Positions 4,334 to 47,869 of a stretch of DNA of 64,000 bases are shown in pieces (position 1 is the first letter of the stretch; every line of letters starts with the position of its first letter). A program made the translations under genes and the position numbers. A model generated the notes under the pieces. It ran no database searches and was not told where the DNA came from. It saw only the letters and a list, made by a program, of their open reading frames with translations. The stretch is from Eledone cirrhosa (lineage: Eukaryota). The DNA is taken from positions 363,196,001 to 363,260,000 of the forward strand of contig OZ024742.1 of NCBI GenBank assembly GCA_964016885.1, in the 5' to 3' direction.

Positions 4334-4515
4334 AAGGACTGTGACACGGGAGGGTGTGTGGTATCTTTGCAATGGAGTGGTGGGGGCAGGTATACCTAGC
4401 CGGCCGCCAGCCGGAGGGGCCATTAGTATACATATATATATATATATATATTCGGAAATATATCCCAACATTGTAGACCCATCAGACCTGTCCTTATCCC
4501 ATTACATTATTGAGA

Positions 4516-4701
4516 GTGGATTGGCAGTATCGGTAGAGGGTCGGACGCCAAGCTTTGCAGCAAAGAGTTACGGCCCTTTATGATCTGAGTTCAAATCCCG
4601 CCGAAGTTAACTTTGCCTTTCATCCTTACGGGGTCGATAAAATAAAGTACCAGTAATACACTGGGATAATTGCTGGCCTTGTGCTAAAATTAGAAACAAT
4701 T
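4516..4701 (+). mobile_element. tRNA-derived SINE (family 1), near full length
   Basis: GGATTGGCAGTATCGGTAGAG A-box-like, GAGTTCAAATCC B-box, shared core, AGAAACAATT tail. Confidence 0.85.
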
Positions 4702-4990
4702 ATTGATAGTATAAGACTCTTCCTTGAAAAGACAGCAATGCATCGTTGGGGTTAAGCCCCCGACTGCTCCTCGTACCTGTTTTCACCTGAGTATATAGGG
4801 CAAAAAGAAATGAATTGTTTTGTACAAGAAGCATAGACATGTTATCATCAGTTGTCCGTCCAATTGCCATGCTAACATTGGTTTGATGGGTTATCCCGTT
4901 CTGTGACATGTCGGAGTAATACTTGAGTTTGGCATTGCTATGGTCCCATCACTGGATACATATTGTAATACCATGAATATAATTACACAA

Positions 4991-8904: not shown

Positions 8905-9316
8905 TGTACCAAATGGGTACTATATAGAGAGCTTGTGTAGCAAATGAGAATATATATATATAGAGAGAGAGCTTGTGTACCAAATGAGGACATAGATACA
9001 CATATAGAGAGCAAGTGCACCAAATGAGGACATAGATATATACCCAAAGCTTGTTTACAAAGTATTCGATTGAAATAAATAAACTACAACGCTCAGTCTT
9101 CTGTAAGAAAAAGTTTGATACCAACAAGAAATAGTTTACAATGTAGTTTACAATGATTTATACATGGAACATTGTGACGGAGTGATACTTCTAAGAGATA
9201 ATTCCTATTTTATCTTCAATGATACTGCTCATAAATTCATTAATTCAATTATGTATTCTTCAAATTCATCAATGAATTTTCATGCATACAATTAAAGGGG
9301 TCAGAACGGTATGTAT

Positions 9317-9350
<34 letters not shown>

Positions 9351-9449
9351 ATATATAACGAAGGAAATGTGGTAAGGAACCAGGTGGACCATAACGCACC
9401 AAAGTACTCAATACTTGAGGTAGTAGAGTGGGTAATAGGAACCAGTAAG

Positions 9450-9543
9450 ACCCCGACAGCTGAGCTCAAGCCGTTTCGACGGCTAATTCTGGACTAAATG
9501 AACATTTATCCTGGTATTTAAATAGCCGATCTTCTCAAGGGGT
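9450..9543 (-). ncRNA. Type I hammerhead ribozyme, U3-A8 variant (mirror copy)
   Basis: Reverse complement of 15319-15412. Confidence 0.8.
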
Positions 9544-10641
9544 AATTCCATATATGGTCAAAGTGATTGTCAAAAATCAGTAGTAATTCTGTGGTTGCAA
9601 ATTAGTAGGGGAGATGGTGGCTAAACCTGCCAGTAGGAGAAAGAGGGGAGGGGGTGGAGTAGACCCAATCAAGCGTTGGTAGTGCCAGCTACAGCTGGGC
9701 ATGAGGTCAAAGAAGATACAGGGGAGGGGGAGGGGGAGGAAGTCGGAACGGTAGGTAGAACAATGGGGGGTAAAAATAGGAAAGAAAAAATACTGAGAGT
9801 GAAGAAAAGCAAATAAGTGTAAAGAAAAAATTAAATTCTACAACCTAGGTGTCAGGCTATTGTTAGGCGAGAATAAAATAAAGAAAGAAAGAAAGAAGTA
9901 AATAAATAAATAAATAAATAAATAAGGAAATAAGTAAAAGAACTAGGTGGGACGAATTAGGCAAAGACCCTTTTAAGAGGTATAAGTACGTAAATGATAC
10001 GGTGACTGGTCGACAAAAGGGGCCAAAATACTAAAGAGACTACCACGAAATAAACAATAAAGGTTTCCATCCCGGGCCAGCAACGACCCAGTGCAGCAAA
10101 GTGAACTTGTACGACATAATAATTCTGAGTCCCGGGAAAAATATATACTAATGCTAACTCTAAAAGATCTAAAACAAGCTACATGAAAGTTCGTACGAAA
10201 TAAAGGTAGAATACGGAGAAGTAAGTTCAGAATCCACCCCGCCCAGAAGAAAAGCGAAGCAAGAAATACTGAAACGAAAAAATAAGGCATAAGTGCCGCT
10301 AAGAAATATAGAGGGCACAGAGAATAGTGGGAGCGGTCGGAAAAGGGGGGCAAGTATCCGGGGTCTAAGCCAACTGCTATAAAGGGCGGAGTCCGCCAAA
10401 TCTATCAAAGACTAGGGGAGGGGGGAGTGGGGGTACTAAGGCTACATGGGGCCAAAGGGCAGCCTCGGGTGGGCGAGAAAAGACGCCGACAAAGGAGAAG
10501 AGCTGGGGTAGAAGGACAAAGGAGAGAGGGGGGAAGGAAATAAAGGATGCGATAAAAGAATACAAAGAAGATCTTACGTCTTCCTTGGCAAGCAGGGGTT
10601 ACCCATTGCAAAATCGGCAACTGGGGTGTTATAGCCCTAGT

Positions 10642-12158
10642 CTACCCCCCCGGGTCATTATGGGGTTTGAGGGCGAGGTAAGTCCTACGCAATCTATGTT
10701 TACATGCAGTAACCAGTTCATCTTTCTTGTTTAGGAGTTGGTCCGTCGAAAACAGCATTTGTAAAGTTTCCTCCGAGCATAAATTGCACGGACGGCGTCC
10801 TCCCGTGTAAGAATTGGCTCTGGACAGTAATCTCCAAGTGAGATCATAGGTGATGTTGTTGTCCTTGAGGTCCCATATGTGGCCCGAAAGTGTAGTGGCG
10901 TGACGCCGGGCCGGGTTTCGGAAGGTATGTCTATGTTGGTATAGCCGGGTCTTGAAGTCACATGCGGTAAGTCCTATATAGGCTTTGTTGGAGGTATCCG
11001 TCCTCACGTTGCACTGGTAGATCACATTACGGTCTCTGCATCTATTGTCGAGTGGGCAAATAGATCTATCCGGGCAGTTACACCTCCTGGTCGGTTCTCC
11101 ACGGCTATTTAGGTTATTTCTGCCATCGGGGTTGAGTTTTTTGTTGTTAGAGGAGACGATGTTTTGTGCGAAGTTTGGTGTAGTGCTGTAAGAGAGTTTG
11201 ATGGTATTTTTGTTAATTATGTTGTGGTAGCGGTGTTGTAATGGGAAGTGTTTTTCAATGAGCCTAAAGAATAGTTTCCCGATGGGAGTAGTCACCTCTG
11301 CGTTGTGGGGAGGATTGAACCATGTTACATTGCGTGAGCGGCGGTGTCTCCTGCTGGTTCCGCTAATGGGATCTGGACAGTAGGATATTTCCTCCCGGAA
11401 ACCACTCCGCTTGAGGGCCTGGTTGTAATAAGGCGCATGTTCATCGAATATCCGCTCATTAGCTGACAAACGGGATATGCGGAGGGAGATGTTTTTGACC
11501 AGGTTGTTAGTGATGTTCCTAGGATGGTTTGATCGGCGGTGGATGTAGTGCAGATTGTCATTAGGTTTCCTGTATGGGTAGTACAGGTCGTTTTCGAGGT
11601 CGAGGGTTACGTCCAGGAAGTTTACTCGGGTCAGGGACGTTTGTAGGGTTATTTTAAATCCCCAGTCGCGGAAGAATCTGATTAATTGTTTCCGGACCCG
11701 ATCTGTACTACTGGGGTTGTACCCTTTAAGGGTAAGGAGCCCATCATCACGGTACAATCCACCACCGAATGCAGGAAACATATCAGTGAGTTTGGCTATT
11801 AGGAATAATCCTATAAGATCAGTGACCTCCGCCGAATCCGTGGCGCCCATGCTGACGTCGAAGGGTGAGTCGGGAGCTCTTTTTATCCATTTAGAGTCGT
11901 CAAAGAGTAAGACTGTCTTCCTGGCGTGGAGGATGATTTTTCTTTCCTGGTCGGTGATGGGCACGAGTGTTTCGGCGAAGTCCAAGGCGGCAGTAAGTAG
12001 CGGTAAGGTGATTGAAGCATAGTAGCTCTCTATGTCGAACTGTATGAATTTAGTTTCTCGTTTATCCTCCATATTGCTGAACCAGGAGATTACTTCCTGG
12101 GTGTTGATCCATAGGCTAAGTCGGGTGTGTTGCTTGACTTTTGGTATCACGCGGTCTA
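10642..12158 (-). pseudogene. Inverted partial copy of the same PLE ORF (RT core + GIY-YIG)
   Basis: Same translation as the + ORF except T/P in AKL(T/P)DMF and the last codons. Confidence 0.9.
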
Positions 12159-14225
12159 TTTGCGAAAAGACTTAGATGGAGAACTTTTTTCTATGACAGA
12201 TATTGCGACAACCAAGACTTCGGCACCAAGGAGAGATTCGGATTTATTACCTACAAATCTCCGCCCCTGAACCCCTTGCTCGCACCCTTCGAGAATGACC
12301 TCTTCCAACTGGTCAAGAACATTAAATTTAAACCCAGACACAACCGATTCCTACAAAAACTCCGTAGCAACTTAACAGAGTATGATAACACAAATGACAT
12401 CATGGTGCATTCGGATAAAACTGGGAACCTATACTTTGTCAACCCTGACAGATACCACACACTGATCAGGAGCAGCCTAAACTCCACCTATAAAAAGGCT
12501 AACCACTCTTGCATCGAGGACATAAATCGAGATGGACAACAAATCACCTCCAGCCTCGGGGTCGCCGACCGCACGGAACCTCTAGACCCACGGACACCAT
12601 ACTTCACACTGAAGGACCATAAATCCGATTTTGACCGTAAACCCTCCATCAGGCTTATTAACCCAACGAAGTCCGACATAGGGAGAATCAGCAAAAAAAT
12701 CCTAGACCGCGTGATACCAAAAGTCAAGCAACACACCCGACTTAGCCTATGGATCAACACCCAGGAAGTAATCTCCTGGTTCAGCAATATGGAGGATAAA
12801 CGAGAAACTAAATTCATACAGTTCGACATAGAGAGCTACTATGCTTCAATCACCTTACCGCTACTTACTGCCGCCTTGGACTTCGCCGAAACACTCGTGC
12901 CCATCACCGACCAGGAAAGAAAAATCATCCTCCACGCCAGGAAGACAGTCTTACTCTTTGACGACTCTAAATGGATAAAAAGAGCTCCCGACTCACCCTT
13001 CGACGTCAGCATGGGCGCCACGGATTCGGCGGAGGTCACTGATCTTATAGGATTATTCCTAATAGCCAAACTCCCTGATATGTTTCCTGCATTCGGTGGT
13101 GGATTGTACCGTGATGATGGGCTCCTTACCCTTAAAGGGTACAACCCCAGTAGTACAGATCGGGTCCGGAAACAATTAATCAGATTCTTCCGCGACTGGG
13201 GATTTAAAATAACCCTACAAACGTCCCTGACCCGAGTAAACTTCCTGGACGTAACCCTCGACCTCGAAAACGACCTGTACTACCCATACAGGAAACCTAA
13301 TGACAATCTGCACTACATCCACCGCCGATCAAACCATCCTAGGAACATCACTAACAACCTGGTCAAAAACATCTCCCTCCGCATATCCCGTTTGTCAGCT
13401 AATGAGCGGATATTCGATGAACATGCGCCTTATTACAACCAGGCCCTCAAGCGGAGTGGTTTCCGGGAGGAAATATCCTACTGTCCAGATCCCATTAGCG
13501 GAACCAGCAGGAGACACCGCCGCTCACGCAATGTAACATGGTTCAATCCTCCCCACAACGCAGAGGTGACTACTCCCATCGGGAAACTATTCTTTAGGCT
13601 CATTGAAAAACACTTCCCATTACAACACCGCTACCACAACATAATTAACAAAAATACCATCAAACTCTCTTACAGCACTACACCAAACTTCGCACAAAAC
13701 ATCGTCTCCTCTAACAACAAAAAACTCAACCCCGATGGCAGAAATAACCTAAATAGCCGTGGAGAACCGACCAGGAGGTGTAACTGCCCGGATAGATCTA
13801 TTTGCCCACTCGACAATAGATGCAGAGACCGTAATGTGATCTACCAGTGCAACGTGAGGACGGATACCTCCAACAAAGCCTATATAGGACTTACCGCATG
13901 TGACTTCAAGACCCGGCTATACCAACATAGACATACCTTCCGAAACCCGGCCCGGCGTCACGCCACTACACTTTCGGGCCACATATGGGACCTCAAGGAC
14001 AACAACATCACCTATGATCTCACTTGGAGATTACTGTCCAGAGCCAATTCTTACACGGGAGGACGCCGTCCGTGCAATTTATGCTCGGAGGAAACTTTAC
14101 AAATGCTGTTTTCGACGGACCAACTCCTAAACAAGAAAGATGAACTGGTTACTGCATGTAAACATAGATTGCGTAGGACTTACCTCGCCCTCAAACCCCA
14201 TAATGACCCGGGGGGGGTAGACTAG
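12159..14225 (+). CDS. 5'-truncated PLE polyprotein: reverse transcriptase + GIY-YIG endonuclease
   Basis: FAKRLRW N-terminal motif, FDIESYY, SMGATDSAE, LYRDD, NFLDV, CNC..C..C, VIY...YIG, CNLC, CKH; open frame; the TTG at 12141 lies in the inverted arm and is not a real start. Confidence 0.9.
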   Translation, partial: FAKRLRWRTFFYDRYCDNQDFGTKERFGFITYKSPPLNPLLAPFENDLFQLVKNIKFKPRHNRFLQKLRSNLTEYDNTNDIMVHSDKTGNLYFVNPDRYHTLIRSSLNSTYKKANHSCIEDINRDGQQITSSLGVADRTEPLDPRTPYFTLKDHKSDFDRKPSIRLINPTKSDIGRISKKILDRVIPKVKQHTRLSLWINTQEVISWFSNMEDKRETKFIQFDIESYYASITLPLLTAALDFAETLVPITDQERKIILHARKTVLLFDDSKWIKRAPDSPFDVSMGATDSAEVTDLIGLFLIAKLPDMFPAFGGGLYRDDGLLTLKGYNPSSTDRVRKQLIRFFRDWGFKITLQTSLTRVNFLDVTLDLENDLYYPYRKPNDNLHYIHRRSNHPRNITNNLVKNISLRISRLSANERIFDEHAPYYNQALKRSGFREEISYCPDPISGTSRRHRRSRNVTWFNPPHNAEVTTPIGKLFFRLIEKHFPLQHRYHNIINKNTIKLSYSTTPNFAQNIVSSNNKKLNPDGRNNLNSRGEPTRRCNCPDRSICPLDNRCRDRNVIYQCNVRTDTSNKAYIGLTACDFKTRLYQHRHTFRNPARRHATTLSGHIWDLKDNNITYDLTWRLLSRANSYTGGRRPCNLCSEETLQMLFSTDQLLNKKDELVTACKHRLRRTYLALKPHNDPGGVD

Positions 14226-15318
14226 GGCTATAACACCCCAGTTGCCGATTTTGCAATGGGTAACCCCTGCTTGCCAAGGAAGACGTAAGATCTTCTTTGT
14301 ATTCTTTTATCGCATCCTTTATTTCCTTCCCCCCTCTCTCCTTTGTCCTTCTACCCCAGCTCTTCTCCTTTGTCGGCGTCTTTTCTCGCCCACCCGAGGC
14401 TGCCCTTTGGCCCCATGTAGCCTTAGTACCCCCACTCCCCCCTCCCCTAGTCTTTGATAGATTTGGCGGACTCCGCCCTTTATAGCAGTTGGCTTAGACC
14501 CCGGATACTTGCCCCCCTTTTCCGACCGCTCCCACTATTCTCTGTGCCCTCTATATTTCTTAGCGGCACTTATGCCTTATTTTTTCGTTTCAGTATTTCT
14601 TGCTTCGCTTTTCTTCTGGGCGGGGTGGATTCTGAACTTACTTCTCCGTATTCTACCTTTATTTCGTACGAACTTTCATGTAGCTTGTTTTAGATCTTTT
14701 AGAGTTAGCATTAGTATATATTTTTCCCGGGACTCAGAATTATTATGTCGTACAAGTTCACTTTGCTGCACTGGGTCGTTGCTGGCCCGGGATGGAAACC
14801 TTTATTGTTTATTTCGTGGTAGTCTCTTTAGTATTTTGGCCCCTTTTGTCGACCAGTCACCGTATCATTTACGTACTTATACCTCTTAAAAGGGTCTTTG
14901 CCTAATTCGTCCCACCTAGTTCTTTTACTTATTTCCTTATTTATTTATTTATTTATTTATTTACTTCTTTCTTTCTTTCTTTATTTTATTCTCGCCTAAC
15001 AATAGCCTGACACCTAGGTTGTAGAATTTAATTTTTTCTTTACACTTATTTGCTTTTCTTCACTCTCAGTATTTTTTCTTTCCTATTTTTACCCCCCATT
15101 GTTCTACCTACCGTTCCGACTTCCTCCCCCTCCCCCTCCCCTGTATCTTCTTTGACCTCATGCCCAGCTGTAGCTGGCACTACCAACGCTTGATTGGGTC
15201 TACTCCACCCCCTCCCCTCTTTCTCCTACTGGCAGGTTTAGCCACCATCTCCCCTACTAATTTGCAACCACAGAATTACTACTGATTTTTGACAATCACT
15301 TTGACCATATATGGAATT

Positions 15319-15412
15319 ACCCCTTGAGAAGATCGGCTATTTAAATACCAGGATAAATGTTCATTTAGTCCAGAATTAGCCGTCGAAACGGCTTGAGCTC
15401 AGCTGTCGGGGT
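15319..15412 (+). ncRNA. Type I hammerhead ribozyme, U3-A8 variant with extended stem II
   Basis: ACCCC-UUGAGAA-GA(U)CGGCUA...UAGCCGUC-GAAA-CGGC(UUGAGCUCA)GCUG-UC^GGGGU; predicted cleavage after 15407. Confidence 0.8.
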
Positions 15413-15422
15413 CTTACTGGTT

Positions 15423-15520
<98 letters not shown>

Positions 15521-15532
15521 TATACATATATA

Positions 15533-15613
<81 letters not shown>

Positions 15614-16535: not shown

Positions 16536-16544
16536 TGTCCCTTT

Positions 16545-16661
16545 ACGGACTGAGTTCAAATCCCGCTGAGGTTAACTTTGCCTTTCATCCTTACGGGGCC
16601 GATAAAATGAAGTACCAGTAATGCGCTGGTTATTTGCTGGCTTTGTGCCAAAAGTAGAGAC

Positions 16662-16664
<3 letters not shown>
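16545..16664 (+). mobile_element. tRNA-derived SINE (family 1), 5'-truncated
   Basis: B-box and shared core. Confidence 0.8.
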
Positions 16665-16695
<31 letters not shown>

Positions 16696-17002: not shown

Positions 17003-17647
17003 TATACATTCCTGCCAGATGGTTGAACGTCTGAAAGTATATATTTTCCTTATGCATATTAACGGCTGAGCAGCCTAATTTGCATATCGAGTGAGTTAAT
17101 CGGCCGGGGTACCGAAAACGATAAACGGAAAAAATGAAACGAAATTTCCTTTCTCACTCTTAGTACGGATGTTACTTAAATATAAGTATGTATGCGTACA
17201 CACATATATGTATACAGACGTAGAGTAGTATGTATATATATATACATACATGCACACATATGTATATGTACGTATGCATTCACCGAACATTTATGTATGT
17301 AGACACTGTACGGCTCAATACGGGATGTTTGTTTACAAACACACCGAGCATTATAATAAATGTTCGGTGAATCCATACGTACATATATATATGTGTGCAT
17401 GTATGTATATATATATACATACTACTGTACGTCTGTATACTTATATGTATGTACGTATACATACTTATATATAAGTAACAGCCGTACTAAGAGTGAGAAA
17501 TGAAATTTCGTTTCATTTTTTCCGTTTATCGTTTTCGGTACCCCAGCCGATTAACTCACTCGATATGCAAATTAGGCTGCTCAGCCGTTAATATGCATAA
17601 GGAAAGTGTATACTTTCAAACGTTCAACCATCTGGCAGGAAGGTATA

Positions 17648-17688
17648 TTTTGCTGACGATAGCTAATAAGCTTGAAACTAGTACATCG
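17648..17688 (+). ncRNA. Minimal type I hammerhead (family E)
   Basis: CUGACGA...GAAACUAGUA^CAUCG; stem I partly eroded. Confidence 0.7.
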
Positions 17689-18080
17689 TTCCTTTGTCAG
17701 TGTTGAACAAATGAGCAACGATGGTTGCTAGACACTGTACGGCTTAATTCGGGATGTTTGTTTACAAACACACCGAGCATTATAATAAATGTTCGGTGAA
17801 TCCATACGTACATATATATGTGTGTGCATGTATGTATATATATATATATACATACTACTGTACGCCTGTATACTTATATGTATGTACGTATACATACTTA
17901 TATATAAGTAACAGCCGTACTAAGAGGGAGAAATGAAATTTCGTTTCATTTTTTCCGTTTATCGTTTTCGGTACCCCGGCCGATTAACTCACTCGATATG
18001 CAAATTAGGCTGCTCAGCCGTTAATATGCATAAGGAAAGTGTATACTTTCAGACGTTCAACCATCTGGCAGGAAGGTATA

Positions 18081-18121
18081 TTTTGCTGACGATAGCTAAT
18101 AAGCTTGAAACTAGTACATCA
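18081..18121 (+). ncRNA. Minimal type I hammerhead (family E)
   Basis: Next tandem copy, 433 bp downstream. Confidence 0.7.
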
Positions 18122-18312
18122 TTCCTTTGTCAGTGTTGAACAAATGAGCAACGATGGTTGCTAGACACTGTACGGCTTAATTCGGGATGTTTGTTTACAA
18201 ACACACCGAGCATTATAATAAATGTTCGGTGAATCCATACGTACATATATATATATGTGTGCCTGTATGTATATATATATACATACTACTGTACGACTGT
18301 ATACATATATGT

Positions 18313-18603
18313 ATCATCTTGGTTAAGAGAGTGGGACTGGCTTTGTGCAGTGCCTTTGCTCACTATAAAAGCTTCACGGCACAGGCATTGCTTTGTATCT
18401 GGAGATCTCTCTGCACTTGTCGTCACATGGTGCCATGGGCCAGCACTATGTGTCAATAATTTTCACAGGTGCAGTGTTTGTACCAGAGTTTTCAAGTCGC
18501 TGGCTGGACTAAAATGTCACACTTGTTTAGCGCATCGGTAGGGGTTCTCTTACATGCATATAAAGTAGTGGCCGTACTCGAAAACGAGTTGGCAGCCACC
18601 ACC
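18313..18603 (+). mobile_element. RTE-derived non-autonomous element, 3' part
   Basis: Matches 57995-58283; encodes remnant C2H2 finger CSVCTRVFKSLAGLKCHTCLAHR typical of RTE ORF ends. Confidence 0.7.
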
Positions 18604-21333: not shown

Positions 21334-21761
21334 CCACATACACACACGTACACATATATATATATATATATATACACATATATACACATATAATATATAG
21401 TTATCTGATTCAGAAATATTATATGGAGTAGCGAAACAATTGTAAACGGACATTATTATTATTAATATTATTATTATTATTATTATTCTCTACATTCCTT
21501 ACATCAAACTAAAATATGTTGACAATCTTTTCATAATGTCTTTCTTGTGAAATTTGTGGTCTTGTTTTGCTTAACTAATGAATATTTGTAGCTCTGCGCA
21601 TCTAACTTCTGCATGAACCCAGCCACCTAGCTTCTTTCTACTGCATATTGCACATTGAGCACATGCCTTTACGCTTTGGCTTCTAACTAATTCACCAATC
21701 TCTCCTCTAATATCTCCTCTCCTATCTCCATCTCTCTCTTTAAGATTGGTTACTCTTGAAC

Positions 21762-21834
<73 letters not shown>

Positions 21835-22104
21835 ATAATAATAAATTTGAAGACTAAAATCCAAAGAGGGCTCGATAAGGATAAATATATATCAAATATA
21901 TAAGAACCGTAGAGCAAATATTTATTAAAATAACAGATTAAAGTTTAAGCAAAGAATCGCTGCTTTCACCCTTAACGGGATCTTCTGAAACTAACAAAGT
22001 CAATCTGTAAACGCAGAAGTGGGTGGATATTTCAAAAAACGTTGCAACCGGAGGAAGACAGGAAGACGATACTTTGGTTCGTGGAAACGTATATATATAA
22101 TAAC

Positions 22105-22152
<48 letters not shown>

Positions 22153-22447
22153 TTATCCGTAGTGCTGTAATATGAATATTATACACAGTAGATGGACAGC
22201 TCACGTAGGGTTTGCTCGACGGTTCCAGTTGTAGTTTCAAAAGTAATCCGGAGAAAATAGAAGGATTTAAATAGATACAGTTCAGTAAAAGGAATTTATT
22301 GACACGTGTTTCAATAACAGTTATTAACCTGAAAACAGCTGCTATCTACAGAGTATTAATTATGCAGACACTCAATATTTCAATGTTATTTTCAACTACC
22401 ATTTCATCAGAATAATATCATTGAGAACTTGTTTGGTTTTTATAGAG

Positions 22448-22519
<72 letters not shown>

Positions 22520-23038
22520 TGCCTCCTCGTTATCGAGTATGGCCATTGCACGATATACCATTATTATGAATTATTAATTAATTCCATCGTGCAATGCCTG
22601 TGCGTAAAGTTATTTTTAAAGTGAAGAAATAGTGTGCTGAGCCAATCTCACTCACTGAGTGACAGTAGCTATAAGACGCCAAGAAGAAAAGATCAACATC
22701 ATCGGTAAATATTGAGCCGCAGGTTGGAGTTGTCACCGGTTCCTGAATTGCCTTCTTCTAGAAGAATGCCCTGACAAAGGCTAGGGGTCCTTCACTCCCA
22801 GTGCTATAACCACGTGAACGGGTATCCAGCCCGACTACATCTATGTCACTGCGCATACACATACACATACATATGTACATGTGTATATACATATTTACAC
22901 ATTTTTGGATGGCCATTGACTCTTATGAGTTCTTCTCTATATATATGTATATATATATGTATCTATGTATACATATATATTTATTTATACACACACACAC
23001 ACACATATATTTATATATATATATAAATAAATAAATAA

Positions 23039-23096
<58 letters not shown>

Positions 23097-23322
23097 ATAT
23101 ATATATATGGATAAATATATATTCTTATAGAAGGCTATTGATGTTTGGCGATTCCTTAAAATCTTTCTCTGTGTGTTGAATAAAGATCGATAAAATCTCT
23201 ACACAATGGTAATTTTTTTAACAGGTCTATATATATGATGGTGTTGAACATATTGATCTTTATAGGTATATATATACGGGAGACGTCGGATTTAATAAGA
23301 GCAACATTGAGGTTTCTATAGG

Positions 23323-23522
23323 NNNNNNNNNNNNNNNNNNNNNNNNNNNNNNNNNNNNNNNNNNNNNNNNNNNNNNNNNNNNNNNNNNNNNNNNNNNNNN
23401 NNNNNNNNNNNNNNNNNNNNNNNNNNNNNNNNNNNNNNNNNNNNNNNNNNNNNNNNNNNNNNNNNNNNNNNNNNNNNNNNNNNNNNNNNNNNNNNNNNNN
23501 NNNNNNNNNNNNNNNNNNNNNN
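23323..23522. other. Assembly gap (200 N)
   Basis: Direct reading. Confidence 1.
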
Positions 23523-23570
<48 letters not shown>

Positions 23571-23575
23571 TGTGT

Positions 23576-23622
<47 letters not shown>

Positions 23623-24050
23623 TGTCTGTCTGTCTGTGTCTGTCTTTGTCTGTGTCTGTGTGTGTGTGTGTGTGTGTTTGAGTGTATTTGTGTGTGTGTA
23701 AGTTTGTGTTGTGTTGACAACCAGAAAATATAACGATGGGCAAATATCAATAATTACTCTCAATATTTCAGCCATGTCTCAGTGATCAGGTTTCGATTCC
23801 CATTAACACAGATTTCACGTCATTCCAAATACAATTTCCCTATAGAAACCTCAATGTTGCTCTTATTAAATCCGACGTCTCCCGTATATATATACCTATA
23901 AAGATCAATATGTTCAACACCATCATATATATAGACCTGTTAAAAAAATTACCATTGTGTAGAGATTTTATCGATCTTTATTCAACACACAGAGAAAGAT
24001 TTTAAGGAATCGCCAAACATCAATAGCCTTCTATAAGAATATATATTTAT

Positions 24051-24108
<58 letters not shown>

Positions 24109-24294
24109 TATTTATTTATTTATATATATATATAAATATATGTGTGTGTGTGTGTGTATAAATAAATATATATGTATACATAGATACATATATATATACA
24201 TATATATAGAGAAGAACTCATAAGAGTCAATGGCCATCCAAAAATGTGTAAATATGTATATACACATGTACATATGTATGTGTATGTGTATGCG

Positions 24295-24626
24295 CAGTGA
24301 CATAGATGTAGTCGGGCTGGATACCCGTTCACGTGGTTATAGCACTGGGAGTGAAGGACCCCTAGCCTTTGTCAGGGCATTCTTCTAGAAGAAGGCAATT
24401 CAGGAACCGGTGACAACTCCAACCTGCGGCTCAATATTTACCGATGATGTTGATCTTTTCTTCTTGGCGTCTTATAGCTACTGTCACTCAGTGAGTGAGA
24501 TTGGCTCAGCACACTATTTCTTCACTTTAAAAATAACTTTACGCACAGGCATTGCACGATGGAATTAATTAATAATTCATAATAATGGTATATCGTGCAA
24601 TGGCCATACTCGATAACGAGGAGGCA

Positions 24627-24633
<7 letters not shown>
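24295..24633 (+). mobile_element. RTE-derived non-autonomous element (mirror at 22513-22850; relative at 60935-61124)
   Basis: 3' end GGCCATACTCGATAACGAGGAGGCAGCCATC(AT)n related to 58253-58283. Confidence 0.6.
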
Positions 24634-24716
<83 letters not shown>

Positions 24717-24748
24717 CTCTATAAAAACCAAACAAGTTCTCAATGATA

Positions 24749-24868
24749 TTATTCTGATGAAATGGTAGTTGAAAATAACATTGAAATATTGAGTGTCTGC
24801 ATAATTAATACTCTGTAGATAGCAGCTGTTTTCAGGTTAATAACTGTTATTGAAACACGTGTCAATAA
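24749..24868 (+). ncRNA. Type I hammerhead with about 70-nt stem II insertion (mirror 22296-22415, minus)
   Basis: UUAUU-CUGAUGA-AAUGGUAGUU...AACUGUUAUU-GAAA-CACGUG-UC^AAUAA. Confidence 0.85.
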
Positions 24869-25011
24869 ATTCCTTTTACTGAACTGTATCTATTTAAATC
24901 CTTCTATTTTCTCCGGATTACTTTTGAAACTACAACTGGAACCGTCGAGCAAACCCTACGTGAGCTGTCCATCTACTGTGTATAATATTCATATTACAGC
25001 ACTACGGATAA

Positions 25012-25075
<64 letters not shown>

Positions 25076-25187
25076 GTTATTATATATATACGTTTCCACG
25101 AACCAAAGTATCGTCTTCCTGTCTTCCTCCGGTTGCAACGTTTTTTGAAATATCCACCCACTTCTGCGTTTACAGATTGACTTTGTT

Positions 25188-25238
25188 AGTTTCAGAAGAT
25201 CCCGTTAAGGGTGAAAGCAGCGATTCTTTGCTTAAACT
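25188..25238 (+). ncRNA. Type I hammerhead with one core change (mirror 21942-21992, minus)
   Basis: AGUUU-CAGAAGA-U-CCC(GUUAA)GGG-U-GAAA-GCA...UGC-UU^AAACU. Confidence 0.65.
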
Positions 25239-25345
25239 TTAATCTGTTATTTTAATAAATATTTGCTCTACGGTTCTTATATATTTGATATATATTTATC
25301 CTTATCGAGCCCTCTTTGGATTTTAGTCTTCAAATTTATTATTAT

Positions 25346-25379
<34 letters not shown>

Positions 25380-25383
<4 letters not shown>

Positions 25384-26720
25384 TTCAAGAGTAACCAATC
25401 TTAAAGAGAGAGATGGAGATAGGAGAGGAGATATGAGAGGAGAGATTGGTGAATTAGTTAGAAGCCAAAGCGTAAAGGCATGTGCTCAATGTGCAATATG
25501 CAGTAGAAAGAAGCTAGGTGGCTGGGTTCATGCAGAAGTTAGATGCGCAGAGCTACAAATATTCATTAGTTAAGCAAAACAAGACCACAAATTTCACAAG
25601 AAAGACATTATGAAAAGATTGTCAACATATTTTAGTTTGATGTAAGGAATGTAGAGAATAATAATAATAATAATAATATTAATAATAATAATGTCCGTTT
25701 ACAATTGTTTCGCTACTCCATATAATATTTCTGAATCAGATAACTATATATTATAATTGATCTGGTGCAGTTGAAAATAATTAACATATTTAAAAAACAG
25801 AGCGGCTTATCGGAACTTCAAAGGAATATAAATTAAAATAATGCTGAATGTTACATAATATAATATACTATATATTGGTTTTTCACTATGGTGTCTTTGT
25901 TGCATCAAGTGTCAGCCATAATCAAGCAGTATTCATCTGTCGAGGCTGCATTGTGCGAGATCTGCCTATGGGTAACAAGATGGCTGCCAAAGGACATATT
26001 TACCTTACTAATTTCAAGGGAAGTAACTCCTCGAGAGTTTAGAAATTGTGGGTAGTTTATAGTTAAGTGCTAATTTTTAAATGTTTTAATTGAGAGACAA
26101 TGTAGGGGAGGTAACTTATAATTATCTAAGTTAGTCATAGCTATTTAACTTATTAGCTACAAGTAAAAATGGGGCTAGATGACTAAGTTGGGTCAAATAT
26201 TCTATTGGCGAAGGAATTAGCCCTTCGATGTCGACAGCTAATAGTTACCTCAGTTCTATCGTTAATCGGCAGAGGTCGTGATACAGTTATGTAATATGCT
26301 TCTGTATTTCAGAGATCACAAGATTTTCTTCATCCATTGAACGGTTGGGCCCTAGCCACGATATCCCAATTTAGAGAGTGTTGAACGTTGCTTAATTTAT
26401 GGTTTTTAATGAGCCTAGCTAGCGATGTCGAACATCTGTTGCTAGGGTCTCGGAAGGAAAAAGAGTGTGCGTTATAACGTACCTTAAAAGGGTTAATTAT
26501 TTTCAACTGCACCAGATCATAATATATAGTTATCTGATTCAGAAATATTATATGGAGTAGCGAAACAATTGTAAACGGACATTATTATTATTAATATTAT
26601 TATTATTATTATTATTATTATTCTCTACATTCCTTACATCAAACTAAAATATGTGGACAAACTTTTAATAATGTCTTCCTTGTGAAATGTGTGGTCTTAT
26701 TTTGCTTAACTAATGAATAT
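25380..26720 (-). mobile_element. Degenerate PLE with GIY-YIG remnant, inverted arm and tail
   Basis: FKVRYNAHSFSF...LNWDIVARAQPF...SCDL on minus 26230-26490; 26492-26720 inverts about 25557-25786; eroded long-stem-II HHR at about 25697-25817. Confidence 0.75.
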
Positions 26721-27158: not shown

Positions 27159-27227
27159 ATATATATATAGATGAGATTCTACAGGACTAGAACTGTTTCA
27201 TTCTTTAGAATGAAACAGTTCTAGTCC

Positions 27228-28991
27228 AACATTGAATTTCATAATAACAGTAATAGTACTCCCGACGTCATTGTAAACCCTAGGCTAACTTCTATAAACC
27301 CAAATACAACGTCAAACACAACTTCGCTAAATGTTCATAATCCAACTCTAAATCAAGAAACTATTATTCCTATTATTCCTATCGCAAACAACTTCTCCAA
27401 TCCAATTCCTTCTATAGATAACACTAGGTCACTCATTAATAATCTCTCTAATTGCAACTGCCGCATTAAAAATAAATGTCATCTCAACAACCATTGTCTC
27501 GATAAAAACTTAATTTATGAATGTAAAATTATAACTAGTACCAATTCCTTCACCTATTTTGGCTCCACTTCCACCTCTTTTAAAGCTCGTCTCTATAATC
27601 ATCATTCATCTTTTAAATACAAACTTAAAAGAACCAACACTGCTCTCTCAGAACTCATATGGTCCTTAAAAGACAAAAACATTAAATATACCATCTTTTG
27701 GAAGAAGGTTTCTTCTGCATCCCCATACTTGAACAGCTCTCTATCTAAAATCTGTAATCTCTGCCTAAATGAAACATTTACCATTATCTCTAACCTAGAT
27801 TCTATAATAAATAGACGTACAGATTTGTTTTCTATCTGCCTGCATAAATTCCATAGAACTTTTCACAAAGTATACAGTTAATATTCAATTCTTTATCAAT
27901 TTAGAATCTTTTCTCAAAGGCACATATACATACACCTCTTTAAAATATACCCATCTTCCTACCATACTTTAAAGGGCTTTATACACTCTATAATACTTGT
28001 TTACTCATTACCCTCATTCTATCTTCACCTTGTAAAATCATTAATAACATATACATCTGTTTTTTGACGTTAGAATATTCATCCGCAATCATTATTTTTT
28101 TCTCTCTATCATAAATCTTTTTAATTTCAATTTCATCCTTAATTTATTATTTTTTTCTCCCCATCAACGAACTCATTCTTAATACATATTAACTCTATTC
28201 GCATATATTATCAATTCCTCCAATATACAAACTTTAACTTCACATTATTTTTCTCAAATCCTTCTACACACAAACCTTAATAATTTTTCTCTTCGTTAAT
28301 TTTGAAATTGCCACAACATACCCTTTTTTGACGTTAGAATATTCATCCACAATTATTATTTCTTCTCTCTATCTTCATACATAAATTCCCTTCGTTAATT
28401 TTTAAATTCCTTTAATTTATACATTATCTTCCAACGGTTTCTCAACCTCTTTATGTAAAACAATATATCTTTCTCTCAGTTATAAAAACTATCTCTTTCT
28501 CTCTATCACCCATCTCTCCCTCTCCACCTTCACTCTCATCTCCTCCCCCTTTTTTTCCATCCTTTCCACCCCCCTCCCTAAATAAAATACTTTTTCCTCG
28601 CACATATCCTCCTTTCGTTAATTTTCAAATTTTTTTTAATTTATACATTATCTTCCAACGGTTTTCAACCTCTCTATGTAAAACAATATATCTCCTCTCA
28701 GTTATAAAAAACTATCTCTTTCTCTCTATCACCCATCTCTCCCTCTCATCTCCTCCCCTTTTTCATCCCCCCCCCTCTCTAAATAAAATATTTTTCCCAA
28801 TATCACACATCAATCTAAAACCACTTTTCATATGTTGATTTAAAACTGCACTATCCACAAGTGTTTTATAGCCTTCATATCATGTTCTCCTGTTTTATCT
28901 GATGAAAACACAAATATTATTGCATGATGATGTTTGTTTTTGAAATGCGCATAATAAAATACATGGAACTCCTTTAACCATCTTTTGATCT

Positions 28992-29586: not shown

Positions 29587-29632
29587 GACACCTGATGAAG
29601 GCTGGAGAGTACATCAGCCGAAACGTTGTGTT
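29587..29632 (+). ncRNA. Minimal type I hammerhead in a short element (29466-29670)
   Basis: GACAC-CUGAUGA-A-GGCUG...CAGCC-GAAAC-GUU^GUGUU. Confidence 0.8.
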
Positions 29633-29846: not shown

Positions 29847-30025
29847 ATAGGAAAATGTTAGACCCCGACGGCTGAGCTCAGGCCGTTTCGTCCAGAAATA
29901 GCCGTCGAAACGGCTTGAGCTCTGCTGTCGGGGTCTAACATTTTCCTATTACCCACTTTACTACCCTAAGTATTGAGTACCCTGGTGCGTTATGGTCCAT
30001 CTATTTCCTTACCATACCTCCTTAG

Positions 30026-30027
<2 letters not shown>
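29847..30027 (+). mobile_element. Family A miniature PLE derivative
   Basis: Same layout as 2454-2646. Confidence 0.85.
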
Positions 30028-30091
<64 letters not shown>

Positions 30092-32798: not shown

Positions 32799-32975
32799 CG
32801 GCAGTATCAGTAGAGGGTCGGACGCCATGCTTTCCAGCATAGTTACGTCCCTTTACGATCTGAGTTCAAATCCCGCCGAGGTTGACTTTGCCTTTCATCC
32901 TTACGGGATCGATAAAATAAAGTACCAGTAATGTACTGGGTAGTTGCTGGCCCTATGCCTAAAGTAGAAACAATT
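32799..32975 (+). mobile_element. SINE family 1
   Basis: Matches 4516-4701. Confidence 0.85.
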
Positions 32976-33068
32976 ATCTTTGTCGTAAAAATGCTCCGTC
33001 TTTAAATTATAATTCTTCTTCTTTTCCTATGTTGAGCCACAACCGTGAAAACATGATAAAAGATGTTA

Positions 33069-33871
33069 TAGCTGTGACCTTCATAGCTGCCCACATGGAG
33101 ACTATTTCAACCCACACTATCTAATATATCCCTCCTTTGTTTAGCTGTGACCTTCATAGCTGCCCACGTGGAGACTATTTCAACCCAAACTATCTAATAT
33201 ATCCCTCCTTTGTTTAGCTGTGACCTTCATAGCTGCCCACGTGGAGACTATTTCAACCCAAACTATCTAATATATCCCTCCTTTGTTTAGCTGTGACCTT
33301 CATAGCTGCCCACATGGAGACTATTTCAACCCAAACTATCTAATATATCCCTCTTTTGTTTAGCTGTGACCTTCATAGCTGCCCACGTGGAGACTATTTC
33401 AACCTAAACTATCTAATATATCCCTCCTTTGTTTAGCTGTGACCTTCAGAGCTGCCCACATGGAGACTATTTCAACCCAAACTATCTAATATATCCCTCC
33501 TTTGTTTAGCTGTGATCTTCAGAGCTGCCCACGTGGAGGTTATTTCAACCCAAACTATCTAATATATCCCTCCTTTGTTTAGCTGTGACCTTCAGAGCTG
33601 CCCACGTGGAGGTTATTTCAACCTAAACTATCTAATATATCCCTCCTTTGTTTAGCTGTGACCTTCAGAGCTGCCCACGTGGAGGTTATTTCAACCTAAA
33701 CTATCTAATATATCCCTCCTTTGTTTAGCTGTGACCTTCATAGCTGCCCACGTGGAGGTTATTTCAACCTAAACTATCTAATATATCCCTCCTTTGTTTA
33801 GCTGTGATCTTCAGAGTTGCCCACGTGGAGGTTATTTCAACCTAAACTATCTAATATATCCCTCCTTTGTT
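33069..33871. repeat. 73-bp minisatellite, 11 copies
   Basis: TAGCTGTGACCTTC recurs at 33069, 33142, 33215 and onward with no unique spacers. Confidence 0.95.
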
Positions 33872-34665
33872 TTTGTTGTTTTTAACGCGTGTATGTGCGA
33901 TCGGAAAGATAATTTCTTTCTCTGGAAGAAATTGGTTCTGTCCAAACCTGGAAAGGGATCGGTTTCGTCATGTTTAAAAACACCCAAGATATATTTAGTG
34001 TTGGAACGGACTCCCTAAGATTGCAGCAAGAGATAAGCGCCATTGACTTTTTTCTTTTTAAAATGCATTCTAAATCTTTTACATTCGTTACATAACTATC
34101 TTATATTAGTTGTAGAAAATAGCTCAATTCTATAGAATTTTAAACAGTTATACTCTGTGTTCTTTATCTCCATGTTAGCTTCCATTTCTTCGCTTTTAAA
34201 GTTAAATTTTTGTTTCATTTTTTCTCACTTCGAGAGATAATTTTAATCCAATTTGCTTTCCCACTTTGAATTATATGTAAATGTTACTCACAAACTGAAA
34301 AAAATAAAATATTTGTATTTTTCTTTTATTGTGTTTCTCAAAATAAAAAGAGAGATATTTAGTAACCCACGAGGGAGAATCTAGACTGATTATCTGTCAT
34401 TTCACACTATACTCTCGTCGCTGTAGTGAACAGCACGAGGTTTCTTTTTACGTATTGATTGAAGTGCCAAGGGAGATGAATCGAAACAAGTTTATAAAAC
34501 TCAACAGGATGGATATAGGAGTTTATTAGCACACGGCATAGTTTCACTAACTTGAAAACATACTGCATTCTGAAAGATTCTAAACTCATAACATATTCCA
34601 TGTAACATATTACATACTGAAACATTAACCATAATACGCCATGTCTGTTCGTATATATATATATA

Positions 34666-34864
34666 TAACAAAGGAATTGTGGTAAGGAACCAGATGGACC
34701 ATAACGCACCAGAGTACTCAATACTTAGGGTAGTAGAGTGGGAAATAGGAAAAAGTATGACCCTGACGGCAGAGCTCAAGCCGTTTCGACGGCTATTTCT
34801 GGACTCAGTCCAGAAATAGCCGTCAAACGGCTTGAGCTCTGCCGTCGTGGTCATACTTTTCCCT
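34666..34864 (-). mobile_element. Family A miniature PLE derivative
   Basis: Tail on the left, palindrome centred near 34806. Confidence 0.85.
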
Positions 34865-34873
34865 ATATATATA

Positions 34874-36007
34874 TAGCTTCAAATGGAGTGAGAATAAGAA
34901 GAAGGCAAGAACGGGGGGAGTTTTCCTCATCAGTTGTCTACTGGGGGTCTCGGGTATTTCCACGCTTTAAAGACAAGATATCTACCGCCCAGAGCGTCCA
35001 ATAATTGGGTAAGTTATTGGGAAAACGGAGGAAGGAGGGAAGGAAAATAGAAGGGAAAAGGGAAGAAAAGAGAAAACAGCGAAATAAAAAGCAACAAACG
35101 GAGGAATGTGCGAGCAACTTAAGGTAAGAAAATCGAAGACCACAACGATAAGAGAATTTAAGTTCAAGAGTGTGTGGGCGTGCGGAAAGACACGTCTGAA
35201 CCCTGCGAGTTGTAAGTGAGAAAAGGACTGCTAGAGGGTCATGCGAGGGAAACAATGGGGTGACAGGCAGAGAGAGGTGAGTGAAAGTGAGAGGGAGAAG
35301 CGAGAGAAAGAAAGAGTGGGAAGAGTAGATAGTAACGAAATAGGTAGGAGAGAGAAGACTAGTAGAGAGGATGACTGAAAGTGAGAGGGAGAACGGTAGA
35401 GGAAGAAAGAGGGGGAAGAGGTGATAGTAACGAAATAGGTAGGTAGGAGGAGAGAGAAGACTGGTCACAGCGAAACATGATAAAATATATGGAGAAAAGG
35501 GCGGCTGTGTAGTTTCTAGTTAAGGTAGCTTAAAATGGAGGGAGAATAAGAAGATAGCAAGAACGGCCAATCCTATTCTCCATATATTTTATCATGTTTC
35601 GCTGTGACTAGTCTTCTCTCTCTCTCTGCTACCTATTTCGTTACTATCTACTCTTACCCCTCATTCTTCCACCCCCTTTCTCCCTCTCACTTTCACTCAC
35701 CCTCTCTCTGCCTGCCACCCCATTGTTTCCCTCGCCTGACCCTCTAGCAGTCCTTTTCTCACTTACAACTCGCAGGGTTCAGACGTGTCTTTCCGCACAC
35801 CCACACGCTCTTGAACTTAAGTTCTCTTATCGCTGTGGTCTTCGATTTTCTTACCTTAAGTTACTTGCACATTCCTCCGTTTTTTTTCTTTCGCTATTTT
35901 CTCTTTTCTTCCCTTTTCCCTTCTATTTTCCTTCCCTCCCTCCTCCGTTTTCCCAATAACTTACCCAATTATTGAACTCTCTGGGCGGTAGATATCTTGT
36001 CTCTAAG
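34874..36007. mobile_element. Family G: partial-tandem (about 652-bp) non-coding element with inverted arm; remainder displaced to 37678-37811
   Basis: 34875 motif recurs at 35527; 35566-36007 inverts about 34967-35500. Confidence 0.8.
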
Positions 36008-38644: not shown

Positions 38645-39759
38645 ACTCACATACATACTCTTTCAGTCTCTGAGGAAAATCGTGTGTGTTCCTGCCAGTA
38701 GAGAGTTGTACTTCACCAAGTTTAAGATACCCCAAACAGACCATGTGCCACTACCGCACCCCTACGACCTCACCAAGAGGAATCAGGCCCATACATACTC
38801 TCGGGTTTCGAATAATCGCAGCCCTCATGCTTATTAATTTTTCAGATTTTTTTAAACCCCTTCTTTTCTCTTTCCGTCCACCCCCACTTATTAAATTCTA
38901 TATTACGTGAAAACATTATACATGACAAAAATAAAAGACCATTACAAGAAATTTCATACATTTTACAAAATAAGTAGGATGGGTTTAGATCTCAATGTGT
39001 AAACTGAACGACTAATTCTGGTTTTAAATGAATCAAGTGAGACAACTTAGAAAAATCATAGTTTGTCCGAACCCCCGCTTATTTCAGCCACCCCCTATTA
39101 TTTTGGACCCAAGAGAAGTACATAAATAAGTGATTGCTGATATATAGAAGAAAGAGGTGCAGATGAAGATTACAGGAAAGAAATGTCATCATTAATGGTA
39201 GTATAGTTCTGTTAATAATAATCCTGATTGACTGAATCACGAGTGAAAATGTTGAGATGTCATCAATGACTTTAATAGTGACTTACACTAGTCGGATTCT
39301 AATACATTGTACACGAAAAATTATTGTTTTATACAGGATTGGTTTGTGGGGTAGCGTGACCTAGTGGTAAGGGTGTTGTACCTACGATCGCAATGTCATG
39401 GCTTCGATTCTAGGATTCACATTCCTCGAGTATAATCAGCTGAAAATAAATACCAGCAAAAGCTGGGAGTTTAACACTTCGATCCATTCTTGAAGATTCA
39501 TCACACAGATTGTTGAGAGTCTAATACATTCCTCTGGAATGGGACAGGATTTCATCGCAGAGTTTTCCAAAATTCTGCTGCTACACGTTTTTGTGTTGTA
39601 GAACAACATGAAGTGAAGTAATTTTCTTAAGGAAAACACAGCTCTGTCAGATAAATAAACCACTGTGCCACCCTGCGCATATAAGGAACACCAAATAAGG
39701 AACACCAGACACTGCAACCCAGTACATCTATATCTATATATATAAATATATATATATAT

Positions 39760-39945
39760 AATTGTTTCTACTTTAGGTACAAGACCAGCAATTACCCAGA
39801 GCATTACTGGTACTTTATTTTATCGACCCCATAAGGATGAAAGGCAAAGTCAACCTCGGCGGGATTTGAACTCAGATCGTAAAGGGACGTAACTATGTTG
39901 GAAAGCATGGCATCCGACCCTCTACCGATACTGCAAATTCACCAA
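39760..39945 (-). mobile_element. SINE family 1
   Basis: Reverse complement of 32799-32975. Confidence 0.85.
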
Positions 39946-40156
39946 TATATATATAATGCAATAAATTATGACATAATTAAATAGCTCTGTAGCTTATATA
40001 TAATTCAAACGAAGACATCGGAAACAAAAGTGAATCTAACGAGAAGATAATGAGAATATGAACGGTAATAGAAACGGAGAAAAACAGGTTTAGGGGGGAA
40101 GAAAGTTGCGGGGAGTCAGAAAAACGAGAAGATATAGACAAGGATACAAAAAACTT

Positions 40157-47024: not shown

Positions 47025-47869
47025 GTATATATACACACACACACATATATGATATAGAAATAGAAAGGTCTGTATACATCCTAACAGAACTACATTTATG
47101 TTATGAGGTCTCCTTTATCTATTACAAACCCCGAAAGCAGTAAATTATAATATGTAGTTTATAACCTGATCAAACGAACTATCCTCTTCTGTTCAATAGC
47201 TAACATTTAGTTCAACAGTTACTGCCATCATCAGTGGACACTGTGGAAAGGTTTATTATAGATGTAGGAACTATTATTCACTTGATACCGTGGAGATGAG
47301 CTTTAAATGAAGGAGGACGTTGGAATGTGTTATGTATATAAAGGAAAGGAATGTTTCTCTTTGTTGAATATAAGTCACCAATTTGGTTGAGGTATATAAG
47401 TACCAATTTAGCAGAGAAGTATATTTCGAGAGTTGTAATGTCGCCACGAGGAACCAGGTTTGGTAGAAAGATGTGATAGGAATATCGACAACGACTTTAG
47501 CTTGTTTTTACATTATTTATTAACAAAGGTTAAGAAGTGAATTAAGCTGGCATGCCAAGAATAATGAAATAATTCAATTAAGATTACGAGAGAAAATACG
47601 GGCGACTGGCTGAAGGCGTTTGGCCAGGCTCGTAGGTAATGTTTTGTCGTTACATATTGTTTGTGCTTACGGAGCAAAAGAACAAGCGTGTTTTACCTTA
47701 GCATGGTCCAGCTGCGAGTCATAGCGTCCTCAAATGTTTGCGGGCTATTTCTCCCTCAGAACGCGTAGGGATACATCCTCTTCTACTGGCGCTGATTGGC
47801 TGAGCTGAGCCAAATCACGCACAGAGAATGTATGTGAGCCCGCGGAATGTAGGTCACTACATATATATT

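Follow-up and report, generated by a model that had tools for sequence, protein, structure and literature searches.

The window, that is, the whole 64-kb stretch of Eledone cirrhosa DNA analysed here, contains a Penelope-like element (PLE) whose direct arm (12155-15427, forward strand) is truncated at the 5′ end and ends in (TA)n, and whose inverted, further truncated arm occupies 9352-12158 of the reverse strand. Positions 9435-12158 of the inverted arm align to 12703-15427 of the direct one, with 2 differences over 2,725 bases, and the remaining ~83 bases (9352-9434, reverse strand) form a one-sided “tail”, equal to the sequence found 3′ of the hammerhead in full tandem units. The (TA)n target is present on the right (15425-15542) and on the left (9310-9357) of the insertion (unstranded). 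The reading frame (12138-14225, forward strand), which is without approximately its first 30 codons, encodes a reverse transcriptase with a GIY-YIG nuclease at the C terminus, and shows the motifs DKT, YRDD and CxCX5C. Elsewhere in the genome, five hammerheads follow one another at intervals of 3,531 bases, the four units between them differing by 0-1 bases, and the first tandem unit read has an intact frame of 717 residues whose ATG lies at base 280 of the unit counted from the hammerhead, 191 bases past C17. As the direct arm of the window begins at base 369 of this unit, it has neither the start codon nor the upstream repeat, and this 5′-truncated copy is probably silent, not being transcribed by itself.

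The element protein gave no match in Pfam, and its identity therefore rests on its motifs (DKT at 117, CNCPDRSIC, the CxCX5C linker, at 572, and the nuclease motif at 591) and on its relatives, of which 2,049 were found among the 7,996 candidates scored. The GIY-YIG core contains a single cysteine, without the internal cysteine pair, which agrees with the definition of the Hydra clade, and so do the insertion into (TA)n, the hammerhead in the terminal repeat, and the tandem and inverted structure with a tail. By motifs and anatomy, the element is thus likely to be a young and very abundant PLE of Hydra-clade type. In the available text of Craig et al. (2021; bioRxiv 10.1101/2021.04.23.441226), the members of this clade have in common with the present family (hereafter family A) the single frame, the C-terminal GIY-YIG, the DKT, the CxCX5C linker and the lack of a cysteine pair in the nuclease core, as well as the (TA)n targets, the hammerhead and the inverted and tandem arrangements with a tail, whereas the unit is longer here (3.5 kb, against generally <3 kb in the clade) and the tail also (~83 bases, against 30-40). 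A non-LTR retrozyme, with its short non-coding tandem unit, was discarded in view of the 3,531-base unit and its 717-residue frame.

The remainder of the window holds several other repeats. Short back-to-back copies of an older subfamily, with only the 3′ half of the hammerhead, lie at 2445-2649, 29847-30042 and 34652-34875 (unstranded). At 29587-29632 of the forward strand there is a minimal Penelope-type hammerhead, with a canonical core plus an extra base (CUGAUGA-A-G), no helix III, and a TA run ~30 bases past it; it may terminate a decayed element to which the nuclease remnant at 27225-27881 would belong. This remnant and that at 51511-52371, both on the forward strand, correspond to other Hydra-like nuclease regions, and a relaxed scan found no hammerhead directly past 52371. 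A PLE frame split in two (54432-56759, reverse strand) has the cysteine pair in its GIY-YIG core and belongs to a clade different from that of family A. An 11-copy tandem array of 73 bases (33064-33872), a 433-base tandem repeat (17300-18314) and a 2-kb inverted repeat with 96% identity (21389-25755) are unrelated to the hammerhead, and many copies of one short interspersed repeat were found, at 2-143, 4494-4713, 16537-16690, 32800-32977, 39729-39964, 47845-47987 and 61935-62156.

The motif that concerns us here is a whole type-I hammerhead (15319-15412, forward strand), recognized by its sequence, its predicted fold and a descriptor scan, of which an identical mirror copy lies in the inverted arm of the same element (9450-9543, reverse strand). 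The numbering of the hammerhead, the requirement for A at position 9 and the role of the 3-8 pair are established knowledge. On the forward strand, stem I is formed by ACCCC (15319-15323) and GGGGU (15408-15412); the 5′ strand of the core reads U3 U4 G5 A6 G7 A8 A9 (15324-15330); G10.1 (15331) pairs with C11.1 (15384); G12 A13 A14 occupy 15385-15387; and A15.1 (15388) pairs with U16.1 (15406) at the base of a 5-bp helix III (15388-15392 with 15402-15406) that carries a 9-base loop, the block from GAA to C17 spanning 15385-15407. The cut is predicted 3′ of C17 (15407), the first base past it being 15408. Three helices surround the junction, which is open at helix I, as in the type-I layout, and positions 3 and 8 form a Watson-Crick pair, U-A. 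The preliminary description, which had placed a hammerhead with a UUGAGAA core and stems I, II and III at this position, is confirmed from the sequence as to position and pairing, with the correction that U15333 bulges out of helix II and that one pair of helix III is G.U.

Folding at minimum energy is predicted to give the motif this three-way junction, and its stability is ordinary (z 0.50 against shuffles, that is, not above them). With the relaxed descriptor, a score of 15 was reached in the whole 64-kb window only by this motif and its mirror copy, and 60 locally shuffled windows (2-mers, 500-base blocks) gave 2 equally good matches. The hammerhead families of Rfam, at both thresholds, gave no match at the motif, in line with the expectation that standard searches would miss it; however, a natural C3-G8 copy of the family (L071) is also without a hammerhead match, and U3-A8 is therefore not the sole cause of this blindness. 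No conserved distal stem I, pseudoknot or loop-loop contact was found across the subfamilies compared.

Helix II is long (15331-15384, forward strand) and comprises G10.1-C11.1, a bulge or small internal loop, a proximal stem of 6-9 bp (15334-15342 with 15374-15382, forward strand), an asymmetric loop and a variable distal hairpin (15351-15371, forward strand). Between family A and an older sister family, S, two-sided changes are found at 15335/15381 and at 15340-15341/15375-15376, while the distal pairs vary between subfamilies. The extra hairpin previously described within loop II does have its GGA/UCC pairing (probability 0.95), but G15359-C15362, its innermost pair, would leave a loop of only 2 bases and is given a pairing probability of 0.00, and G15368 is bulged; as many as 18% of shuffles of this 31-base segment fold as well. 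As a conserved module it was rejected, given that 3-57% of shuffles fold as well across 10 majority rows, with the lowest share (3-5%) in three rows that have one common 7-bp version, and that the sister family S has a different hairpin in its place; it is, rather, the variable distal part of helix II.

Loop III carries the palindrome reported earlier, UGAGCUCA, at 15394-15401, although its conservation is limited to GAGCUC (15395-15400), the only part kept in all 10 subfamily majority rows, with the three flanking bases of the loop varying between subfamilies. The layout of the loop (15393-15401) is constant: two bases, the 6-base palindrome and one base. This is the layout of the kissing-loop dimer signals of retroviruses. 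A double-hammerhead dimer is predicted at -62.3 kcal/mol, against -45.8 kcal/mol for two monomers, a difference of the kind to be expected with any palindromic loop.

The constraint on the motif was examined in 10 subfamilies, each represented by the majority row of its 5-23 copies. Twelve core positions, U4, G5, A6, A9, G10.1, C11.1, G12, A13, A14, A15.1, U16.1 and C17, are invariant in 10/10 rows, and GAGCUC likewise, while position 7 takes all four bases (G/A/C/U); among the other non-stem columns 26/66 are invariant. As the rows are related to one another, the comparison gives an indication rather than a probability. The 10 rows also preserve stems I and III, and helix II covaries between A and S. 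The stretch 15385-15407 is invariant in 10/10 rows except for the loop flanks and 15404, although a protein that binds close to the priming sites could also keep the 3′ half unchanged. An alternative register, with G15331 as G8, was discarded, since it would put at position 9, where A is required, a base that varies between subfamilies (A/C/U). All this supports a hammerhead motif under constraint, in which U3-A8 is the state of the subfamily and not the result of damage.

At the level of the genome, the pattern with the seven core bases left free gave 5,639 matches, which count arms and not insertions, and in which U3-A8 is the norm of the family (4,824/5,639), followed by C3.A8 (418/5,639) and U3.G8 (19/5,639). 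A second branch has 1,796 matches, 1,340 of them with C3.A8, which brings this mismatch to at least 1,758 matches. The youngest-type pattern was found 2,296 times, and the 40 hits scored among 413 candidates are all identical over 125 bases. A canonical C3-G8 subfamily within family A was sought and not found: the C3-G8 pattern has 14 matches genome-wide, and 8/10 of those fetched are family copies scattered on the tree; among the 100 listed of the 150 matches of a further C3-G8 pattern, most are chance joins or scattered copies. The genome-wide motif search proposed in the preliminary description thus yields a dominant U3-A8, and not a family consensus with C3-G8. The subfamilies with C3 nearly all have G7. 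The older sister family S has 410 matches, mostly U3-U7-A8, in addition to an older G8 group in which 9 C3-G8 and 10-11 U3.G8 copies have the structure of the family, the other loci fetched being unrelated or belonging to family A (30 loci from 60 matches, plus copies collected earlier). At the level of sequence, these counts show that the U.G and C.A states were tolerated by whole subfamilies.

The order of these states was sought in trees in which positions 3, 7 and 8 were masked. The main tree (137 rows, 177 columns) has its newest lineage thinned by half and includes bridging copies, which are U3.G8 and resemble S in their 5′ half and A in their 3′ half. It takes the form of a ladder, with end branches that broadly shrink, along which one finds S, first with C-G or U.G and then with U-A, the bridge with U.G, lineage I of family A with U-A, the C.A copies and, finally, lineage II with U-A, which ends in the subfamily of the window. 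From oldest to youngest, then, the 3-8 pair appears to have been C-G/U.G, U-A, U.G, U-A, C.A and U-A, with less certainty as to the order within S and as to how the bridge connects with S. In a reduced tree of 128 rows, from which 9 sporadic or mosaic rows were removed, the C.A copies and lineage II group in a single clade (99/92) that lies within older U-A copies, with a bootstrap that is not fully settled; with the same 128 rows, the monophyly of lineage I is rejected (p-AU 0.002), and so is a single clade of all the U3 copies of family A (p-AU 5e-7). In a 143-row tree without the bridging copies, the root of family A fell among the C3.A8 copies, and the corresponding scheme, in which C3.A8 was ancestral and U3 arose twice, was replaced once the root, on addition of the U3.G8 bridges, came to lie in the U3-A8 lineage that is the older one. 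The family of the 54%-identical relative has no hammerhead of the family A type at its ends within the flanks fetched, and it was therefore unusable as a root.

Within-group divergence agrees broadly with this order, its median being 0.19 in the S G8 group, 0.12 in S with U-A, 0.03-0.07 in lineage I, 0.025-0.048 in the C.A copies, 0.02-0.027 in lineage II and 0.005 in the youngest copies, with the caveat that the rows of the latter were picked by identity and that the groups are mixed. In the C.A subfamilies the hammerhead is predicted to hold a share of only 0.05-0.17 of the folds, against 0.87-0.93 in lineage I; in lineage II this share goes from 0.20-0.31 in the early copies to 0.71 in the youngest. 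These figures are fragile, as the share of S with U-A drops from 0.95 to 0.04 when flanks are added. On the tree, U-A comes after every mismatch phase, and a transversion at 3 or 8 is found in no subfamily majority.

Some further observations concern these relatives. A small U3 group (L048, L049 and L196) lies inside the C3.A8 clade, with 100/99 for L048 and L049, which are the arms of one insertion, and is possibly a separate, minor return to U3-A8. If an inverted-repeat transcript underwent A-to-I editing on one or the other strand, the expected traces would be the very changes that break U-A (A8 to G and U3 to C). A second abundant family of the genome (L248-L277) has a 713-residue frame 53-54% identical to that of family A, and in several of its copies the frame is interrupted by TGA or TAG close to where the match begins. 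In three metagenome relatives (L180-L182), with proteins 36-37% identical, a compact canonical hammerhead (CUGAGGA) with a 2-bp helix III lies ~160 bases past the matched frame.

The ends of the copies provide a second type of evidence. The 3′ half of the hammerhead has 60,509 genome matches, and among the first 30 of them 14 end at 15425-15427 and 11 at the end of the tail, while in the remaining 5/30 the sequence continues past C17 to an end that was not fixed; none of the 30 ends at C17. Likewise, among 130 copies picked by their 5′ half (14 unclassified), none has a TA run starting near the cut site. Insertions therefore run through C17, and their templates spanned the cut site. As for the 5′ starts, in the first 100 of the 2,772 arms truncated within 15392-15409, 17 start at 15408 and 12 at 15409, the other 71 being spread over the other 16 positions. 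When the arm is joined straight to (TA)n, 7/19 start at 15408 (6/18 without a tandem duplicate; p 3e-4 if starts were uniform). In a control covering 15405-15421 (the first 100 of 1,999 arms, with 30 arms of other subfamilies and 12 with indels set aside), 3/6 TA-joined arms start at 15408, two of them common to the first sample, and among 52 inverted or other junctions there are 5 at 15408 against 9 at 15414 and 9 at 15419. By branch, the starts at 15408 are 5/26 in the branch that is mostly C.A, and 8/32 and 3/25 in the U-A branches, so that the C.A branch shows no reduction of the excess. Scaled up, the modest excess at 15408 would represent about a thousand arms, less than 2% of all. It is suggestive of either a footprint of cleavage in vivo or a stall of the reverse transcriptase, a stall at the foot of helix III being predicted at nearly the same position. 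Family-wide, most copies break off inside helix II (60,509 matches of the 3′ half against ~7,400 of the 5′ core): 24/30 sampled copies start at 15361-15382, often as tiny back-to-back pairs, and stops in helix II are seen in the window at 2503, 29886, 34805 and 34807. These starts look like a strong stop of reverse transcription at the long helix.

A U3-A8 hammerhead is in itself a published kind of motif in a known kind of element. The covariation of C3-G8 to U3-A8 in natural hammerheads, stated to be active in vitro, is found in the available text of Perreault et al. (2011, PMC3088659), and ~1,300 U3-A8 hits correspond to the Cercyon PLEs of Schistosoma mansoni in that of Cervera and De la Pena (2014, PMC4209133), whose supplement has a PLE-marked UUGAAAA row; the variant is, as the preliminary description held, tolerated and compensatory, but it is no surprise. 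Family A has in common with the Cercyon hammerheads the type I, the terminal repeat of a PLE, U3-A8, the long helix II (which spans 54 bases here), G10.1-C11.1, the palindromic loop III and the dimer model. It departs from them in its helix III, of 5 bp with a 9-base loop against one that is absent or of 1-2 bp, and in the lack of an extra base between 9 and 10.1; it is thus not one of the “minimal” metazoan PLE hammerheads (helix III short or absent, extra base between 9 and 10.1), which it resembles in place and palindrome. The same source, as available, attributes to metazoan PLE motifs a low activity, and proposes the dimer model for them; it describes no subfamily-wide C3.A8 or U3.G8 states for Cercyon. 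The U3-A8 cases in PMC3088659 are, in the part available, isolated examples, without a trajectory within a family such as that of family A, and a natural CUGANAA hammerhead is given as inactive in vitro in the accessible part of PMC8490949. For the Hydra clade, the function of the hammerheads is called unclear, and core variants, traced here in family A, are not discussed in the portion of Craig et al. (2021) at hand. A functional parallel comes from the Poseidon element PAc of the green anole, whose hammerhead mutants, according to the part of PMC11167929 available, insert normally in vitro and whose cutting needs protein; two starts of reverse transcription downstream of the hammerhead define its tail, as here, and uncut RNA is its main template, as we propose here, although PAc is of another clade, has the canonical C3-G8, and starts its frame inside the hammerhead and not 191 bases past C17. 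The available texts of a review (PMC6765202), of the work on cave-cricket satellites (PMC2837043), of PMC2920678 and of a 2026 preprint hold nothing contrary, and in those of the literature compared there is no in vivo evidence of cutting by a PLE hammerhead. In the literature compared, neither a C3.A8 state common to whole subfamilies nor a trajectory of the 3-8 pair was found to be reported; Lunse et al. (2017) and the work of Przybilski and Hammann (2007), which may bear on core mismatches and dimers, lie outside this comparison.

Taking all this together, we consider it probable, with a fair degree of confidence, that the motif is the terminal-repeat hammerhead of a young (TA)n-targeting PLE with Hydra-clade features, which would be likely to cut 3′ of C17 (15407) at a slow rate, either in dimeric form or with the help of the element protein, as seems probable, in an accessory step that reverse transcription would not need. 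The cutting of tandem transcripts would have released unit RNAs of 3,531 bases, in a process in which the GAGCUC loop could have led neighboring units to swap their helix III strands, and the cDNA would have been mostly primed 18-20 or ~103 bases downstream of the cut site, on RNA that was uncut or had been re-joined. Cutting was probably dispensable over a long stretch, as the C3.A8 stage left at least 1,758 matches; a weak selection for it would have taken the 3-8 pair back to Watson-Crick after each mismatch phase, and would explain that return.

The spread of the C3.A8 subfamilies and the inactivity of the natural CUGANAA would also fit a ribozyme that is irrelevant to the element. In another reading, the motif would be a catalytically dead relic, kept as a folded binding or priming signal for the element protein, in which 3 and 8 drift by transitions in a neutral-like manner. 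The four combinations of pyrimidine 3 and purine 8 do indeed occur as subfamily states or old groups, the priming sites lie just downstream of the motif, and the excess at 15408, present in C.A copies too, is explicable as a stall at the foot of helix III, in addition to which the peaks at 15414 and 15419 among the inverted junctions are as high (9 and 9, against 5 of 52). However, the far 5′ core bases, U4, G5, A6, A9 and G10.1, are invariant with N7 free, which is a catalytic pattern, no subfamily majority has transversions at 3 or 8, and on the tree U-A succeeds each mismatch phase, so that we regard the relic as unlikely.

At the opposite extreme, and closest to the view of the preliminary description, the motif would be an efficient stand-alone monomer whose cut is a required step of transposition, as could be expected from the 5-bp helix III, which is stable in the monomer, the predicted fold share of the youngest copies (0.71) and of the older U-A lineage (0.87-0.93), the 6/18 independent TA-flanked junctions that start at 15408, and the fungal PLE hammerheads with long helix III, which cut as monomers according to the available text of PMC4209133. 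Against this stand the C3.A8 matches (at least 1,758), in subfamilies with predicted fold shares of 0.05-0.17, the insertions that read through the cut site, and the failure to find a conserved distal stem I or loop-loop contact across subfamilies, and we would give an obligatory monomer ribozyme little credit; the reading of the motif as “functional” appears weakened by the large C3.A8 subfamilies and by insertion ends downstream of the cut site. Finally, an origin of A8 through a one-base deletion in CUGANGA-N-G, the usual core of Penelope-type motifs, with G7 as the displaced G8, would agree with the near-constant G7 of the C3 subfamilies and with the longer core of the window motif at 29587-29632 (CUGAUGA-A-G), but is very improbable and largely refuted, as the core of the oldest related copies, CUGAGGA-G or UUGAGGA-G, has the ordinary length, this length is also that of the three metagenome relatives (L180-L182), the longer core was found in no family copy, and the C3.A8 stage is derived and not basal.

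Returning to the accessory hammerhead that we favor, a bolder extension of it can be put forward, although we hold it only tentatively and think it rather doubtful as a whole: the lineage would be a layered fossil record of the catalytic 3-8 pair through both wobble-type intermediates (C-G, U.G, U-A, U.G, U-A, C.A, U-A), with Watson-Crick regained each time and a better predicted fold after C.A, and, at the same time, the approximately one thousand copies that start one base past C17 would be reverse transcripts of self-cleaved RNA. If this were true, the starts at 15408 would be the trace left in DNA by a PLE hammerhead that cuts in vivo.

What may matter in this family is the apparent record of the 3-8 pair, together with a natural series of near-identical versions with U-A, C.A, U.G and C-G cores, each belonging to a burst whose relative age and copy number are known. 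This series of variants could show whether the element spreads with a weak or dead ribozyme, and whether the restoration of the pair is selected. It would be a rare case in which compensatory evolution inside the core of a catalytic RNA can be traced step by step.
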